7,441 bases of DNA from a virus. Taxonomy: Duplodnaviria; Heunggongvirae; Uroviricota; Caudoviricetes. Made by a program: the position numbers and the translations under genes. Every line of letters begins with the position of its first letter. Positions within the stretch are counted from its first letter, which is position 1. The stretch lies in IMG/VR virus record IMGVR_UViG_2531839579_000023; one strand, 5' to 3'. Below are positions 793 through 7,441 of this stretch, one piece after another. The notes beneath the pieces were generated by a model, which was given only the letters and a program-made list of their open reading frames with translations, did no database searches and was not told where the DNA came from.

Positions 793-2688
793 TCACCCGA
801 CCCGCACAAATAATCCTATATACGCTTCCTTTCCGTTGGTGGTATAAAGACCATCTCCCCCCAGAGACTGATACACTCCGGGAAATGCCGATGTATTCGT
901 TCTGCCAATGACAAACGTTGCCTCCCCTTTCATTGTGCCTGCTCCTGTCACGCCTCCCACTACTATTTCCACCGGCGCAAGTGCTTTTCCCGGGCATGGT
1001 TGTCCACGACTCAGGCGCATTAAAACTCCACCTTCCGCTACTCCCAAAAAAGCTGCCATAACCACACTGCCGATATCCGGTTTCGGCGAACTGATACTTC
1101 TTAAAAATTCATCCTTTGATAATTTGCTCTGAGCCTCATCCATTACCACTTTGACCGCTTTTGGGGTTGCCGCCAGTGACTCGGAAGTGCTGTTTGTCGC
1201 ACTACTGAGTTGTACTATCCCTTTCTGTGCTGTCGTTGCATTCTGTGCGGTGTATTTCCCGTTAGCCAGGTCATACGCGGCCTTAACTGCTTTTGGCGTT
1301 GCCGCCAGGTCGAGTCTGTTGTCGCACTCTGAGTGTACTATCCCCTTTTTCGTCGTGCTCGCATCCTCAAGCGCCACGGCGATGCAATATCCTCTGCCCG
1401 TTTTGCGCTGTCTCGCGCGCGTTGCTGCGATTCGCCGTACTTTGCTCTGGCTGCGCCGTCGCACTACCAGCGCCTCGTCGCCTTCGTGGATGCCGTCGTG
1501 GCGCTGCCCTTCGCTGCTGACGCCTGTTGGTCGCCTCATCTTTTGAAGCAGACGCCGATGATGCCGATGACGCCGCCGAACTGGCGGACGATGCGGCAGC
1601 CGTTTTTGAGGATTCTGCACGGGTTTCCGACGCTTTCGCGTTCGTTTCGGATGTCTTCGCTGCGGAAGCAGACCTCGCTGCTGCGCTGGCCTGTTCAGTG
1701 GCTTCGCCAGCCTTCGTTGTGGCTGTTGAAGCAGACGATGCGGCACTTTCTGCCGACTTTCCGGCAGCGGTGGCACTGGCTGAGGCCTGCCCGGCACTTG
1801 TTGATGCGGCACTGGCAGATGATGCAGCCGCTGTTTTTGAGCCTGCCGCAGCTGAGGCGCTCTGTCCCGCTGCCGTTTCAGAAGACCTGGCGTTCGTCTC
1901 GGACGTTTTTGCCGCCTTCGCGGAATTTCCTGCCGCCGTTGCCGAGGAAGCGGCACTACTGGCGCTTGATGATGCGTTCGTTTCTGATGATTTCGCTGCC
2001 TCTTTTGAGGCCGCCGCATCCCGGGCTGAGGTGGCGCTTCTGACGCTTCGTGGTCGCGGGGATGCAGAAGTGGCTGCGATTTTGTGACGCTGCGCATTCG
2101 TTTCTGACGTTTTCGCCGCACGGCACTGGTAGCGCCGCGCTTTTTGAGGACTCTGCAGCGCAGCACTTTTGATGCTTCAGGCTTTGTTGATGCCGTTCCG
2201 CGCTGGAAGAGCCTGAGCCGACGCGCGGCCTGCCGGCTGAGTGCTGGCGCCGGCTGAGCCTGAGCATCAGTCGCATGGGTTGCCGCCTCACGGCGATGTG
2301 CGGCATCCTGGCTGACTTCTTGCGGCTGCCGTGTTCTGTGCCACCCGGACGCGTTACGCGCCACTCTTCCACCATCAGTCAAACGGCGCAGTGCCTCGGA
2401 CGGCATCATCCTCCGTCATGGCACCGAGAAAATCATTCAGCGTACCGGTCGGATCTTCATACACGTGATGGTCCCGGCATGTGACGGCGGGAACCTCCAC
2501 CAACAGAATAACGCTGTACTGCCGTACTCAACGTCCATGCTGTAACGCCCGGCTTCATCCGGATTTTCTGAGGCCAGCGTGTTCACCACCACCGTGGTGC
2601 TGTTACGTTTTGCTTTCAGCTGGATTGTGCAGTTCTGTACCGGTTTTCCTGTGCCGTCTTTCAGTACACCTGAAATCTTTACTGCCAT
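793..2688 (-). pseudogene. stf: Side tail fibre protein Stf-like, frame-disrupted as given
   Basis: N-terminus from ATG 2686-2688 reads MAVKISGVLKDGTGKPVQNCTIQLKA...NPDEAGRYSMDVEYG, near-identical to recalled lambda Stf (orf-401); the ORF track starts 2 codons earlier at a GTG (2694). My manual translation of 1527-2087 in a third minus frame gives the lambda-like Ala/Ser/Thr-rich shaft (...ATSARDAAASKEAAKSSETNASSS...AAKTSETNARSSETAA...). The C-terminal part is in the frame of the 793-2409 ORF (...IAVALEDASTTKKGIV...LAATPKAVK...). The N-terminal frame hits a stop at 2437-2439 and the lambda-like text moves between frames, so no single frame encodes the protein. Confidence 0.8.
1153..1345 (-). 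repeat. Tandem ~132-bp direct repeat inside stf encoding a ~44-aa tail-fibre repeat motif
   Basis: Two adjacent copies: plus-strand core 1174-1215 and 1306-1338, flanked by the shared cttttggNgttgccgccag. Copy 1 encodes TAQKGIVQLSSATNSTSESLAATPKAVK; copy 2 is a shortened version. The motif matches the tail-fibre repeat known from lambda Stf and Rac StfR-type fibres. Confidence 0.7.
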
Positions 2689-2699
2689 ATTCACCCCAC

Positions 2700-2727
2700 A
2701 AAAAAGCCCGCCTGAACCGGCGGGCTG
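2700..2727 (-). terminator. Rho-independent terminator downstream of lom
   Basis: On the minus strand: 8-bp GC-rich stem agcccgcc/ggcgggct (plus 2706-2713 and 2720-2727), 6-nt loop, then a run of seven T (plus-strand A run 2699-2705). It sits 26 nt after the lom stop and 10 nt before the stf ATG. Confidence 0.65.
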
Positions 2728-2753
2728 TCATAACACTGTGTTACCTGGCTAAT

Positions 2754-3343
2754 CAGAATTTATAACCGACACCCACGATGAAACCGTCAGTGCGCCAGTC
2801 ACCACTGCCGGAGCCTTCATAAGCAATATCAATGGCCACGGATTCGGTCGGGTTAAACTGCACGCCAGCCCCCCACGCCAGAGACGTGTTGCTGTGGCGA
2901 CCGTCATCACTTCCGGTCAGCACATCGTGCTTTTCCCCTTGTTGTCAGTTACGCGAGATAATCCCCGGAGAAAGTCGACACACGGCTGTAAGCCACACCC
3001 GCCATCGCATACGCGCTGAACCATTCATTCACGCGCACAGACGGCCCGCCATCACGCTGAACCAGCGGTTACGCACGGAATCTCATGCCAGCGGGTATCG
3101 CTGTATGCGTTTTTTGCTCATCTCAGCTTGGCATAACTGAAGACGTAATCAGCCCCAGCGGTCCGTAAACTCATAACGGTATTTCACGTTAATCCCGTTC
3201 AGATTATCGCTGCCGGGAGCGTTCGTACGGGCATGAAGATACCCTGCGCTCAGTGTGGCCTGCTGCTCAGACGCCCATGCAGGCGCACCGGATACGGCCA
3301 GACAGATGGCTGCGGACAAAATGGCTGCACAAACTTTACGCAT
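2754..3343 (-). pseudogene. lom: Lom outer-membrane protein (Ail/Lom family), frame-disrupted as given
   Basis: Start ORF 3149-3343 reads MRKVCAAILSAAICLAVSGAPAWASEQQATLSAGYLHARTNAPGSDNLNGINVKYRYEFTD, near-identical to recalled lambda Lom with a cleavable signal peptide. Manual translation of the 3' end gives ...HDVLTGSDDGRHSNTSLAWGAGVQFNPTESVAIDIAYEGSGSGDWRTDGFIVGVGYKF, stop at 2754-2756. Between about 2935 and 3170 the Lom text continues only by switching frame several times. SD gagagg lies 6 nt upstream of the ATG. Confidence 0.85.
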
Positions 3344-3367
3344 AATTACCTCTCGCTTTTCTGCAAT

Positions 3368-3391
3368 AAAAAAGGCGCCATTTCTGGCGCC
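3368..3391 (-). terminator. Hairpin plus T-run between J and lom (terminator-like)
   Basis: On the minus strand: ggcgcc agaaat ggcgcc followed by tttttt (plus 3386-3391 and 3374-3379 stems, A run 3368-3373). It lies 20 nt after the J stop and 24 nt before the lom ATG. Confidence 0.55.
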
Positions 3392-3410
3392 CGTATATGG
3401 GTTATAAAAT

Positions 3411-4850
3411 TCAGCTGATACTGATGCCTGCGGTGGCTTTCTTCATCACCACAACCAGCAAATCGCTGATACTTGCTGTGGGATACCAGTCATTTACCAG
3501 CCATGATGACACCGAAAACTCCAGCGTCATGTGGCCGCGACCAGCTGGCATATCAATAACACCACTGTAAATCAGCGTATTATCCAGCGCGGTACGGTTA
3601 TAAATTTCAGCACCGTTTTTCCGTACTATCAGGCGGCATGACGAATAAATATCGTTATTCTCCCTCTCATGTTTAGCGCCGCTGAATGCCACCGCCGGAA
3701 TAACAATCTGCCGGTCAAACGGCTGATCGTCATAAACCCTGACGGTGATGGTCCCTGATGGCCACCGTTCCGGTGCACGGGAGTCCCGGGGGAAAGCTTT
3801 GCCCACTGTTTTAACGAGATCGCCTTCAATCTGGTTGGCGGACAGTTTTCCCAGAACCCGACAGTTCTCGTTAATCGTGACGTTGTTGAGCGTCCCGGAG
3901 TTCGCATTCACGTTACCGCTGATATCGGCATTTTTCGCCGTCAGCCGCCCGTCCGGTGTCAGGGAAAATGCCGGAGGATTACCGCCGCTGGTAATGGTCG
4001 GAGCCGTCAGGCGTTTCAGGAACACGTCGTTCATGAATATCTGATCGCCCTGACCAACAAACATTGGTCTTGTGTTGCCATTAGACGGATCAATAAACGC
4101 GATACGGTTAGCGGCAACCAGGAACTGGCTCAGCTTGCCTTCTTCCGTGTCCTCCATGCTGAGGCCAATACCCGCGACATAATGTTTGCCGTCTTTGGTC
4201 TGCTCAATTTTGACAGCCCACATGGCATTCCACTTATCGTTGGCGTCCTTCCACTCTTTCGAAAACTCCTCCAGTCTGCTGGCGTTATCCTCCGTCAGCT
4301 CGACTTTTTCCAGCAGCTCCTTGCCGAGATGGGATTCGGTTATCTTGCCTTTGAAAAAATCCAGGTAACCTTCCGCATCATCGCTCGCCCGACCGACGGC
4401 CTCCACGAATGCCGATTTGCCAACGGTGTTCACACTGCGGATATAAAAGTAATAATCATGGCCCGGTTTGATATTGATACTGGCAGCTATCCAGTACAGC
4501 GCCGAGCCAAGATAGCGGGCTGCGGTTTCAACCTGCCTGATATCCGCAATCCGCTTTTCCGAGAACCAGAACTCAAACTGTACCGTCGGATCATAAACCG
4601 CAAGATGCGGCGTGGCGGTTATCTGAAAATACCCCGGTGTCAGCTCAATCTGCGACGGCGCTGCCGGTGCGGCAATCCGGAACGATACCGATGCCGGATC
4701 GCCCTGCTGCCCCCACGCATTTACTGCCCGGACTGTCAGCCTGTAGTTCCCCAGCGCCAGTTGTGTGAAGCGGTATGTGGTTTCCGCCGTCCGGGCTGTG
4801 CTGACCAGCCGCTCACTGCCGTCATCCGCTGCCACGGTCAGGCGAAGCAT
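3411..4850 (-). CDS. J: Tail-tip host-specificity protein J, C-terminal 479 codons (uninterrupted portion)
   Basis: ORF reads ...[61 protein letters not shown]...[33 protein letters not shown]..., near-identical to recalled lambda J over roughly 330 aa, then a diverged last ~150 aa. The listed Met is internal; this is the 3' part of a longer gene whose upstream part is frame-broken. Confidence 0.9.
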
Positions 4851-6727
4851 GAACTCACGCCCTTCACCACCTTCGGCGTTCCCAGCGGCCAGACCTGATA
4901 CTCCCCGCTGTCTGCGGTGACTTCGCGGTCAGTGCTGCACGCTGGCGGCGTGACACCATTACCGTGCCGCTCTGGTCGCCGTCAAAGTGCGCCCCGTTAT
5001 CCACGATGGCTCTTTTTCCGGTACATGCTGCACGGCGGTGATGGCATACGTGCCGTCTCGTTCTCACGGATACTCACGCAGCGGAACAGGCGCTGGCGCA
5101 CGTCGGCAGCTTCAGCCCCCAACGCTGTATCGCAACGCCGTCAGGAACACGGCTCACTTTACCTTCACGCCGTCGGTGACGGACTGACCTCCACGCTGAC
5201 CGGATCCCTCCGTCAACCAGGCTTATCAGCGTGGTCCGGAGATGGCAGCGTGATTTCACGGTCGAGCGTCAGCGTCCGGGTCTGGCTGTTACCGCCAGCA
5301 CGCGCCCCGGTGCGATACCGCATAGTCATCATCGCAGATTTCAATGACATCCCCGGTACATGGCGAAGCCCTTCGCACCCACGCTGAAGTCCACGGTCTG
5401 CGTTTCCAGCAGTTCGTTTTAATCAGCCACAGCCCGGCGCGGTGGCCTGCCCCCGGCTGGTACAGCCAAAGCATCCATCTTCGTGACGTTACGACCGTAA
5501 CGGGCAATGGCCTGCGTTCTCACAAGCTCTGTCGCCGTCTCCCAGCCGTTATCGGGTCAATCCAGTTCACCTCAACGGCATTATGGCGGTCTTCAGGGCG
5601 CTGAACTGTAGCGGAACGGCGCCCATCATCCGGCATCACCACATTACTGCGGTTATAGGCCACACCTTATCGAGGTCGGTCCTGCACGAACGTCAGCTCT
5701 GCCCGTTCCATACCGGCATACAGCGCATCGCGAGCAGAAATCACTGAGCACATCCCACGCTTCGCTGGTGGTCAGAGCATTACAGGTGATGCGCGGCTCC
5801 GTGCCGCCAAACCGTCCGGCACGACTGGTCGCAGTACTGGCCGATAATACAGCGCCCATTTTCCACATCGCCGCACCAAGACGTTTCCCCATGCCGTAGC
5901 GGGATGGGTCAGCATATCCCACAGACACCAGGCCATGTTTTGCTGTATGCTGGCTTAAACGTTCCGTCCCAGATACCGCTGTATTGCCGGTCTGCGGGTT
6001 ATAGTTCGACGGCACCTGCAGAATACGCCCGCGCAGATGATAATTACGGCTCACCTGCTGGCTGCCGAACTGCTCCGATCCACCTGACGCCGACCAGTGC
6101 CGTGTTCGGGTAGCACTGTTTCACATCGATATTTCGGTGTATGACGACCAGAGCGTTTTGTTCTGCAGCTGGTCTGTGGTGCTGTCCGGCGTCATCTGCG
6201 CATCCGGATATTAAACGGGCGCGGCGGCAGGTTATCCACCACCACCGAGGCCAGATACTGGAGTGGTTTTGCCCTTAATGGTGATGTCTTTTTCCGTCAC
6301 CCAGCCACCTTACGTGTATCTGAACCAGCAGGCGACTTCCGACGGATTCCGTCCCCCTTTGAGGTGGTTTCCACCAGTGCCTGCACACCGAAGGTAAAGC
6401 GCAGACGGTCGATGTTTGCCGACGTGATGGTCCGGGTATCGGCGTGTCTATTTCACTTCCGTACCCAGACCGTCTCGGACCGAGATTCAAATCCCTCCGG
6501 CGGTGTCTGTCCTGCTCACCTGCCCGGAACACCACCGTGACACCGAGATGTTGTATTCCCCTCACTGTCCAGCACCGGGTACTGTTCAGCAGCACGCTTT
6601 TTAATCCATCCACCGGACCTTCAACCGGCCCTTCGCTGATGGCATCGATCACACTCAGCAACTGCGTGGACTTCAGGTTGTCCTTCGCTTCGCGCGGGGT
6701 ATGCCCCTTACTGCTGCCTTTACCCAT
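4851..6727 (-). pseudogene. J: Tail-tip host-specificity protein J, N-terminal ~two-thirds, multiply frame-disrupted as given
   Basis: ATG at 6725-6727 with SD ggag 8 nt upstream; first 50 aa MGKGSSKGHTPREAKDNLKSTQLLSVIDAISEGPVEGPVDGLKSVLLNST match lambda J. Lambda-J-like text then continues in pieces on different frames (6275-6727, 5653-6054 QVSRNYHLRGRILQVPSNYNPQT..., 5289-5507 ...HRAGLWLIKT...GDVIEICDDDYA, 5074-5259 ...TALISLVDG...KVSRVPDGVA, 4864-5067 ...AIVDNGAHFDGDQSGTV), with stops between them. Confidence 0.8.
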
Positions 6728-6787: not shown

Positions 6788-7441
6788 TCAGCGACCAATC
6801 ACCACAACCTGACCACCATCCCCTTCGTCTGCCGTGCTGATCTCCTGAGAAACCACACGTGACCCCACGCGCATTTCACCGTACAGAACAGGCAGAACAT
6901 TGCCCTGGGCAACCATGTTATCCAGTGAGGAGAAATAGGTGTTCTGTTTGCCGTTATCCGTTGTCTGTGTACGGGGAGTTCTGGCTTTCGGTGCCAGCAT
7001 CTGCGCCACACCACCGAGCACCATACTGGCACCGAGAGAAAACAGGATGCCGGTCATACCACCGGCCCCAATGGCTGCCCCCCATGCTGCAAGGGTGGCT
7101 CCGGCGGTAAAGAATGATCCGGCAATGGCGGCAGCCCCCAGGACAATCTGGAATACGCCACCTGACTTGGCCCCGGCGACTCTGGGAACAATATGAATCA
7201 CAGCGCCATCAGGCAGAGTCTCATGTAACTGCGCCGTTAACCCGGACGTGCTGACGTCCCGCCCGGCAATCCGTACCTGATACCAGCCGTCGCTCAGTTT
7301 CTGACGAAACACCGGGAGCTGTGTGGCCAGTGCGCGGATGGCTTCAGCCCCCGTTTTCACACGAAGGTCGATGCGGCGGCCAAATCGTTGCAAATCCCCG
7401 TAAAGGCAGATGCGCGCCATGCCCGGTGACGCCAGAGGGAG
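6788..7441 (-). CDS. I: Tail assembly protein I (gpI), 5' end beyond window
   Basis: ORF reads MARICLYGDLQRFGRRIDLRVKTGAEAIRALATQLP...GEMRVGSRVVSQEISTADEGDGGQVVVIGR, near-identical to recalled lambda gpI (223 aa). Lambda gpI has about 13 more N-terminal residues, so the true start is probably just past position 7441. Stop at 6788-6790. Confidence 0.9.
   Translation of the reverse strand, partial: LPLASPGMARICLYGDLQRFGRRIDLRVKTGAEAIRALATQLPVFRQKLSDGWYQVRIAGRDVSTSGLTAQLHETLPDGAVIHIVPRVAGAKSGGVFQIVLGAAAIAGSFFTAGATLAAWGAAIGAGGMTGILFSLGASMVLGGVAQMLAPKARTPRTQTTDNGKQNTYFSSLDNMVAQGNVLPVLYGEMRVGSRVVSQEISTADEGDGGQVVVIGR

Follow-up and report, generated by a model that had tools for sequence, protein, structure and literature searches.

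In phage lambda, the genes J, lom and stf (orf-401) follow one another, with a hairpin and T-run after J (hereafter T1) and another after lom (T2; NC_001416, positions 18,904–19,649). Of the essential late genes, J comes last; lom, stf and tfa are dispensable (PMC10695390). According to the literature, Q renders RNA polymerase terminator-resistant along the late transcript. Lambda Lom has been called a moron product, and prophages are reported to express lom (PMC3594210, PMC7067206, PMC4651098), without control by the regulatory circuit of the phage (PMC7067206, PMC4651098). Expression in the repressed prophage has been reported for both lambda and phi24B. An array study by Osterhout et al. 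did not detect lom in lysogens, and its authors note that little is known about the lom promoter. Both lom as a moron expressed from the prophage and the Q-dependent passage of polymerase into stf belong, with the terminators, to the accepted biology of lambda and were already known. Luk and Szybalski (1983) are reported to have described terminators arranged in tandem beyond J in the late operon of lambda. Terminators at the J–lom–stf junction are not annotated in the lambda records NC_001416 and J02459.

Comparable arrangements occur in other phages. Gene 15 of HK97 is a moron in the tail region that is dispensable, carries its own terminator and is variably present; the protein it encodes functions in the lysogen (Cumby et al. 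2012, PMC3594210). As an extra gene among the tail genes, lom shares its dispensability, terminator and variable presence. Unlike HK97 gene 15 and the moron concept, lom had no promoter in or next to the unit and no compositional contrast. Phage 21 (OL657228.1, positions 19,195–19,222) has the T1 hairpin, T-run and stf ribosome-binding region in the form described below, without lom, so that T1 abuts stf; the depositors annotated a 'terminator' at this place. In Gifsy-1 of Salmonella, the slot between J and stf holds a small ORF followed by a T2-like hairpin (AGCCTGCC TGCG GGCGGGCT) with a T6 run, and the stf ATG lies 11 nt after this run. Here, however, the cargo encodes an unrelated hypothetical protein of 80 aa, and J is followed by a far weaker element.

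The 7,441-nt stretch of DNA analysed here (the window) contains the J–lom–stf junction of a lambda-like E. coli prophage and lies at the end of the draft contig AQBU01000187.1 (GCA_000358575.2). The arrangement is ordinary: two genuine hairpins of terminator type bracket lom, as in lambda. J, the tail tip or host specificity gene (3411..6727, minus strand), was delimited by a tblastn search in which the intact J of the nearest complete genome served as query and gave hits in two frames. Its 3′ part (3411–4850) is an open 479-aa ORF with the Pfam domains Ig_J, Phage_Tail_Tip and Ig_GpJ_C and the stop codon at 3413–3411 (minus strand); upstream of 4854 the frame is broken by 1-nt deletions. The lom gene (2753..3343, minus strand) was delimited by alignment to NZ_CP070902, with only a 64-aa ORF (3343–3149) left from the start codon. 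The side tail fibre gene stf (793..2688, minus strand) was placed from its ORFs, the deletion list and tblastn matches in three frames. Its frame is lost after 83 aa, which match PF08400 (phage_tail_N). The ribosome-binding region of stf, GTGGGGTGAAT, together with the ATG (2688–2686), occupies 2686..2699 (minus strand) and begins right after the T-run of T2. An Rfam scan of the whole window found no family above its threshold.

Compared with lambda, the Shine–Dalgarno (SD) regions are similar, and near-identity extends over T2, the final ~120 nt of lom and the start of stf. Over its first ~480 nt, lom is only ~65–70% identical, with a 24-nt insertion in lambda, and at the position of T1 lambda has an unrelated stem that is weaker (CGTCCG/CGGGCG, −9.0 kcal/mol). 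Lambda lom is intact, whereas the lom of the window is broken.

The element after J, T1 (3365..3392, minus strand), was recognized as intrinsic-terminator-like by terminator scan, folding and conservation. It starts 18 nt past the J stop codon on the strand of the gene and consists of an 8-bp stem with six GC pairs (3392–3385 with 3380–3373, GGGCGCCA/TGGCGCCT), a GAAA loop and the tail TTTTTTATT, which ends at 3365. Its folding energy was −15.7 kcal/mol (z = −4.45), and none of 200 shuffled sequences was as stable. T1 was 100% identical to that of intact relatives. When 295 loci with 23 distinct sequences were aligned, 97.8% of cells were paired. Compensatory double changes were found at two stem pairs, G–C to A–U in 46 loci and C–G to U–A in 42, with broken intermediates in 2 of 295 loci; the covariation score was matched by 0 of 500 shuffles. 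The pairing of T1 is thus under selection. In phages without lom, the same hairpin stands directly ahead of stf. Because such phages, for example phage 21, keep T1 abutting stf, T1 is best described as a resident terminator of the J end that is independent of the lom unit.

The element after lom, T2 (2700..2726, minus strand), came from the terminator scan and folding and bounds the lom cassette on the right. It starts 26 nt past the lom stop codon on the strand of the gene; its stem of 8 bp, seven of them GC (2726–2719 with 2712–2705, AGCCCGCC/GGCGGGCT), encloses a GGTTCA loop and is followed by a T6 run (TTTTTT) reaching 2700. In a 41-nt context its folding energy was −18.6 kcal/mol (z = −3.03), a stability reached by 1 of 200 shuffles. 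Over 175 loci the stem was strongly conserved and the loop variable. Double-sided changes were seen at none of the T2 pairs, and the observed covariation score was equalled by all shuffles, so that it is conservation and shape that point to a terminator here. The stf ATG lies 11 nt beyond the last T of the run. The preliminary description had placed this ATG correctly and had given the gap as 10 nt.

The terminator scan of the window, a check that had been proposed for the minus strand, returned 11 sites, among which T1 and T2 were the best. Since 11 sites are no enrichment over the 7.4 ± 2.8 expected, the evidence lies in the quality and conservation of T1 and T2 and not in the number of sites. 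Both had been described beforehand as a hairpin plus T-run, at 3368–3391 between J and lom and at 2700–2727 after lom, and were found within 1–2 nt of these positions. Folding too weak for termination had been named as grounds for rejecting them; both folds were unusually stable. T2 had also been called the stronger of the two; its hairpin was indeed more stable (−17.6 versus −15.1 kcal/mol), by a small margin, and the composite scores, from a d'Aubenton-Carafa type formula whose values are indicative only, were similar. A T-run directly follows each hairpin on the late-transcript strand only, and the opposite strand has none. By form, both predicted elements are canonical intrinsic (Rho-independent) terminators oriented with late transcription, and their form, their conservation and, for T1, covariation argue for terminator function. 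The supplementary files of an E. coli 3′-end mapping study had no entry for stfR, lomR, stfQ or stfP.

A hairpin and T-run 11–15 nt upstream of the stf start were present in 302 of 304 loci, a count that derives partly from loci picked by patterns including the T-run. The hairpins belonged to at least three unrelated families. Of the two exceptions, the one inspected (L083) had a fourth hairpin with a broken T-run. A terminator before stf as a general rule was rejected, as distant phage_tail_N genes lack one: in phiP27, Seuratvirus and the Serratia and Klebsiella phages, phage_tail_N genes were not preceded by a terminator.

The left end of the lom cassette was defined by comparing junctions with those of phages lacking lom. 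Between T1 and the lom ATG (3343–3341) lies a 21-nt leader, GCAGAAAAGCGAGAGGTAATT (3344..3364, minus strand), which includes the SD sequence GAGAGG (3354–3349) 5 nt ahead of the ATG. The good SD attributed to lom in the preliminary description was thus present, and the 24 nt it had counted between the upstream hairpin and the ATG agree with the distance from the T6 run of T1 to the ATG. The leader followed a T1-type hairpin in all 205 loci that had it. By this comparison, the cassette consists of the leader with its SD, lom and T2, joined at the T-runs. Junctions without lom, such as those of E. ruysiae and Escherichia sp. loci, show T1 followed by TTTTTTATTT and GTGGAGTGAATATG of stf. The lom-containing junction was found in 4,007 E. 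coli genomes and the lom-less junction in 1,156 of 5,426; the latter also occurred in 22 phage records, phage 21 among them. Identical J 3′ alleles and T1 alleles occurred with and without lom. When IMG/VR was scanned by pattern for cargo other than lom behind this T1 allele, the only two loci retrieved were point variants of the lom leader. The presence or absence of lom would fit the gain of a cassette and its deletion between T-runs alike.

An intact homologue of lom matched PF06316 over positions 1–199 of 199 (E = 1e-123), and the 64-aa N-terminal fragment in the window matched the same family (E = 1.5e-32). The assignment to the Ail/Lom family therefore stood, with the difference that the frame in the window is not open: no single ORF of the window gave a full-length PF06316 match, only a 64-aa N-terminal and a 56-aa C-terminal piece. 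Over the 901 nt aligned to NZ_CP070902 there were nine deletions of 1 nt each, no insertions and three mismatches. The lom DNA of the window was 98.7% identical to intact lom genes, and the nine deletions, which span 3161–2931 (minus strand), were all the difference of consequence. Because they leave only the N-terminal fragment, lom as sequenced in the window cannot be an expressed moron.

Judged as a moron in the sense of Juhala et al. (2000), lom was present or absent at the same position among near-identical phages and had its own downstream terminator, T2 being part of the inserted unit. No promoter of its own was found upstream, the inserted unit having only 21 nt 5′ of the ATG. Nor did lom deviate in composition from J and stf: in the intact relative the GC content of lom was 55.2%, compared with 56.7% in J and 58.6% in stf, with similar values in lambda, giving no contrast indicative of foreign origin. 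Two classic moron features of lom, promoter and composition, were thus lacking or unproven. Of the earlier view of lom as a terminator-flanked moron, the two hairpins and the presence or absence at one position held; T1 lies outside the lom unit, and neither promoter nor GC content bore it out.

With 21 nt leaving no room for one, the lom cassette appears to be promoter-less, so that whatever drives lom in the lysogen would lie in or upstream of T1, or would be read-through. The preliminary description had found no convincing sigma-70 promoter in the 24 nt before lom and proposed promoter prediction further upstream; both scans concurred, with no site above background. The sigma-70 consensus scan upstream of lom found no promoter on the lom strand, and the highest position-weight score within 360 nt upstream, 6.8, compares with a best of 5.9 ± 1.8 in the background. 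The same position-weight scan in lambda gave nothing beyond background. The missing recognizable promoter conflicts with the reported constitutive expression of lom, and the expression logic is therefore partly unexplained. A non-consensus or activator-dependent lom promoter is possible.

These results bear on whether lom is instead a self-contained moron, with its own promoter overlapping the 3′ end of J and/or T1 and with T1 acting mainly as a leader or attenuator of lom. Constitutive expression in lysogens, uncoupled from phage regulation, would suit this reading, as would a fair −10 (TATTAT) that overlaps the T-run in lambda, and genes of the Ail/PagC type are often activator-dependent with poor consensus promoters. 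The lambda −10 is, however, not conserved in the allele of the window, the scans were empty or near background, the same upstream sequence including T1 is found directly before stf without lom, and Osterhout et al. did not detect lom in lysogens. We consider an own promoter of this kind rather unlikely. It is more improbable still that the hairpins are not terminators, serving instead as RNA stability or processing elements, such as protective 3′ stem-loops of the polycistronic late mRNA, or as conserved linkers for the homologous exchange of tail modules. The change in lom from ~65–70% to near-identity with lambda, continuing through T2 into the 5′ end of stf, marks a mosaic joint, and under Q antitermination the hairpins would stay in the mRNA. 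Against this stand the U-run immediately after each hairpin, confined to the late-transcript strand, and the retention of a stem and T-run before stf by at least three unrelated hairpin families and by the Gifsy-1 hairpin. This pattern speaks for the terminator design and not for any one sequence. Terminator and stability or linker roles are compatible with each other.

The broken frames could also be real, with lom, J and stf true pseudogenes of the source strain in a decaying prophage. In favour of this, the nearest complete relative is a defective prophage too, which lies beside ydfJ and in which L is interrupted by a stop codon, the C40 peptidase gene is frameshifted and stf is truncated. 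The pattern in the window is different: over J, lom and stf, 115 deletion runs (93 of 1 nt) stood against no small insertions, whereas natural decay is expected to bring substitutions and larger deletions too. The runs fell into four sharply bounded blocks, with about one per 16–27 nt and more deletions than substitutions inside and error-free stretches between; in J they lay between 6579 and 4854 and in stf in 2524–2036 and 1529–1309. They were private to the window when related loci were compared, and the lom deletion junctions were missing from ~330 related loci, except for one k-mer seen once. Genuine decay therefore seems very unlikely. Because 115 deletion runs are accompanied by no small insertions and the window lies at the end of a draft contig, the deletions in J, lom and stf are most likely errors of the draft assembly and not biology.

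Taken as a whole, we regard as probable an explanation that combines a resident T1, a lom cassette at its T-run, Q-dependent read-through and deletions from assembly errors. T1 would be the resident intrinsic terminator ending J, at whose T-run the lom cassette was joined in, and T2 would thereby re-create a terminator directly ahead of the stf ribosome-binding site. As long as the prophage is repressed, RNA polymerase not modified by Q would halt at T1 and T2, so that transcription of J or lom would be kept out of stf–tfa. Upon induction, Q-modified polymerase from the late promoter would pass both elements, and lom, stf and tfa would be expressed as the tail of the late operon. By analogy with lambda, it is reasonable to suppose that stf would depend on antitermination.

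For annotation, T1 belongs to J as its downstream terminator and not to lom, and the lom, J and stf frames of this contig should not be called pseudogenes before the reads are checked. With the cassette boundaries fixed by the lom-less phages, a search inside the cassette cannot locate the lom promoter. The window is one more copy of the lambda arrangement, of poor sequence quality, and its importance is mostly one of annotation. We tentatively suggest, as a reading with somewhat less than even chances, that the J–stf junction of lambda-like temperate phages is a dedicated slot for cargo, built around terminators, with cargo swapped at the T-run and lom promoter-less. A selected terminator, in at least four unrelated hairpin versions, would always abut the stf ribosome-binding site; lom in E. 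coli, or another ORF in Gifsy-1, would be gained or lost exactly at the T-run; and expression of lom in the lysogen would arise from sequences inside J or T1 or from leaky read-through of T1. If this is true, lom would strictly speaking be no moron, and the T-runs of terminators would be favoured joints for the exchange of cargo.

All genes of the window were carried on the minus strand, in the order tail gene I (its end), J, lom, stf and a DUF4376 gene (220–786). The last occupied the position taken in lambda by tfa, the tail fibre assembly gene, and its protein was 100% identical to that of the nearest complete relative, the enterotoxigenic E. coli genome NZ_LR883006, which matched the full window with 96.6% identity as a defective lambda-like prophage adjoining ydfJ. 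This prophage (locus L002, 2,388,116–2,398,677) was inserted in ydfJ and had its own defects: stf was truncated, L contained an internal stop, the C40 peptidase gene was frameshifted and a DinI-like gene was only partial. The window itself lay at one end of draft contig AQBU01000187.1 (assembly GCA_000358575.2).

Terminator-like sites were located by a pattern scan, which returned 11 for the window, where shuffled sequences gave 7.4 ± 2.8; the total count was therefore unremarkable. The hairpins named in the preliminary description, T1 after J and T2 after lom, were the top two of these 11. On the minus strand, T1 consisted of GGGCGCCA-GAAA-TGGCGCCT (3392–3373) followed by TTTTTATT, and T2 of AGCCCGCC-GGTTCA-GGCGGGCT (2726–2705) followed by TTTTTG. 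The folding energy of T1 alone was −15.7 kcal/mol (z = −4.45, 0 of 200 shuffles equally good), and that of T2 in its 41-nt context was −18.6 kcal/mol (z = −3.03, 1 of 200 shuffles equally good). Neither hairpin had a 3′ T-run on the opposite strand. By sequence and predicted fold, both were canonical terminator structures. The start codons of stf (2688–2686) and lom (3343–3341), the lom Shine-Dalgarno (SD) sequence and the 24-nt gap upstream of lom had been placed correctly; the T2 T-run was indeed close to the stf ATG, at 11 nt rather than 10 nt.

The T1 alignment comprised 295 loci with 23 distinct sequences, chosen by the leader or the stf start and not by the stem. Pair 10–21 was A-U instead of G-C in 46 loci and pair 11–20 U-A instead of C-G in 42, while intermediates with one side changed and unpaired occurred in 2. 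Nine loci (e.g. L009, L028 and L034) had an unaltered stem but a flipped loop, ATTTCT in place of AGAAAT. Overall, 97.8% of cells were paired, compared with only 33–63% in slid registers, and the covariation score was reached by 0 of 500 shuffles. Judging from these aligned sequences, T1 is maintained by selection. In the flipped loci, the loop and closing pair (equivalent to window 3385–3380) were inverted, resembling a hairpin-tip flip. The T2 stem was nearly invariant with a variable loop, and its single changes were mainly wobble-compatible. No T2 pair was altered on both sides among the collected loci, so covariation neither supports nor opposes T2.

Loci without lom were retrieved by searching with the Stf N-terminus. 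In the Escherichia ruysiae and Escherichia sp. E1V33 loci, J directly preceded stf, and the J stop was followed by the same T1 hairpin, TTTTTTATTT and GTGGAGTGAATATG. With lom, the order was T1, TTTTTTATT, GCAGAAAAGCGAGAGGTAATT-ATG, the remainder of lom to its TGA, 26 nt, T2, TTTTTT and GTGGGGTGAATATG. Comparison of these junctions delimits the lom unit as approximately 673 bp, consisting of a 21-nt leader with the SD sequence, lom and T2, with both joints inside T-runs. The lom-less junction was frequent: 1,156 of the 5,426 complete E. coli genomes had it, B strains among them, as did 22 phage records; 4,007 genomes had the lom-containing arrangement. Identical alleles of the J 3′ end and of T1 were found both with and without lom. 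Since lom-less junctions keep T1 and alleles are shared, the sequences place T1 as a resident feature of the J end, independent of lom, and T2 as part of the lom unit. The preliminary description had lom as a terminator-flanked moron; its upstream hairpin, T1, is no part of the lom unit and also stands before stf where lom is missing. In phage 21, the same hairpin carries a terminator annotation from the depositors, with the stf ribosome-binding site coming next. The presence/absence event was either a gain of lom or a deletion between T-runs.

A hairpin with a T-run lay 11–15 nt upstream of 302 of 304 stf starts, a sample biased by the many loci picked with T-run-containing patterns, and at least three unrelated hairpin families were represented. 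One of the two exceptions, locus L083, had a fourth hairpin (CCTCCGGC-TAT-GCCGGAGG) with a broken T-run. In an Escherichia albertii prophage (L100), locus L077 and 17 similar loci, lom had a different 3′ flank of approximately 150 nt, with a long imperfect hairpin lacking a T-run and then a terminator (AAGCCCG...CGGGCTT plus T7) 14–15 nt before stf. Gifsy-1 of Salmonella carried an unrelated 80-aa ORF instead of lom in the J–stf interval and had a T2-like terminator of its own, 11 nt ahead of stf. No such terminator preceded the distant Stf N-terminal-domain genes of phiP27, a Seuratvirus, and Serratia and Klebsiella phages, which ruled out a general trait of such genes. A terminator set against the stf ribosome-binding site is thus a property of the lambda-like J–stf junction.

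A consensus scan detected no sigma-70-like site near lom on its strand, and position-weight scoring over the 360 nt upstream peaked at 6.8 (background best 5.9 ± 1.8, 95th percentile 8.7), in agreement with the preliminary description. In lambda, a fair −10 (TATTAT) without a −35 overlaps the T-run, but it is not kept in the window allele. Because the leader is only 21 nt, the lom cassette is predicted to carry no promoter. In GC content, lom (55%) did not differ from J (57%) or stf (59%). Presence/absence and an own terminator therefore agree with a moron in the sense of Juhala et al. 2000, as had been proposed, whereas an own promoter and foreign composition were not found. Lom is regarded as a moron product and its gene is reported to be expressed in lysogens (PMC3594210, PMC7067206), constitutively and uncoupled from phage regulation in phi24B (PMC4651098), although one array study did not detect it in lysogens and noted how little is known of its promoter (PMC2147009).

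The preliminary description had overlooked that the lom frame in the window closes 64 codons after the ATG. Over 901 nt around lom, comparison with the intact relative NZ_CP070902 revealed nine single-base deletions (all within 3161–2931), no insertions and three substitutions, and both flanking intergenic regions were 100% identical. Across the whole window, NZ_LR883006 revealed 115 deletion runs, 93 of one base, and only two insertions, both in-frame in the divergent part of gene I. Four sharply bounded blocks (6579–4854, 3161–2931, 2524–2036 and 1529–1309) contained the deletions, which were spaced about one per 16–27 nt; between blocks, only substitutions and no small indels were found relative to relatives. 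Because of these blocks, the matches of J and stf to their intact homologues were split over two or three frames. Words across the nine lom deletions were missing from approximately 330 related loci, except one found once, while control words from undamaged lom parts occurred 51–187 times. All 80 Lom-anchored loci of the viral collection encoded the full 199-aa protein. It is very unlikely that lom, J and stf are real pseudogenes in the source strain, given deletions without small insertions at the end of a draft contig. The sequence pattern, an excess made up purely of random single-base deletions at such an end, instead favours consensus or assembly error, which is probably its cause. In gene I, window 7054–7119 differed from the closest genome by in-frame insertions of 27 and 9 nt and a 6-nt deletion, with 64 substitutions in 250 nt; in contrast to the deletion blocks, this segment is a genuinely divergent allele.

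As aligned, the window has the lambda arrangement but differs in its lom allele and its T1 stem; at the T1 position, lambda has the unrelated stem CGTCCG-GGAA-CGGGCG, with TTTTATT after it. Near-identity to lambda extended over the final ~120 nt of lom, T2 and the stf start, whereas the first ~480 nt of lom were only about 65–70% identical and lacked a 24-nt segment present in lambda. A mosaic joint lay inside lom (window about 2870–2600, lambda 19,460–19,700). Low-coverage contigs matching the lambda lom–stf region also occurred in many assemblies of unrelated organisms (L086–L103 and others), such as Leeuwenhoekiella, Pseudomonas, Shewanella, Oceanobacillus, Kitasatospora and Bradyrhizobium; several were about 48.4–48.5 kb, and contamination with, or spiking by, lambda DNA is their most likely source. 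In 1983, Luk and Szybalski reportedly described tandem terminators distal to J in lambda, and the terminators at J–lom–stf are unannotated in lambda GenBank records.

Of the essential late genes, J comes last, and lom–stf–tfa is dispensable (PMC10695390). According to the literature, Q makes polymerase terminator-resistant along the late transcript. In the prophage state, unmodified polymerase would be halted at T1 and T2, which would keep stray or lom transcription out of stf–tfa; after induction, Q-modified polymerase would pass both and express lom, stf and tfa. The feature is already known and does not depart from established lambda biology. The observation of the preliminary description was confirmed and its interpretation partly supported; small refinements are the exact limits of the cassette and the finding that T1 does not depend on lom. 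In practical terms, the chief outcome is that this contig has damaged frames of lom, J and stf, with assembly errors as the probable cause.
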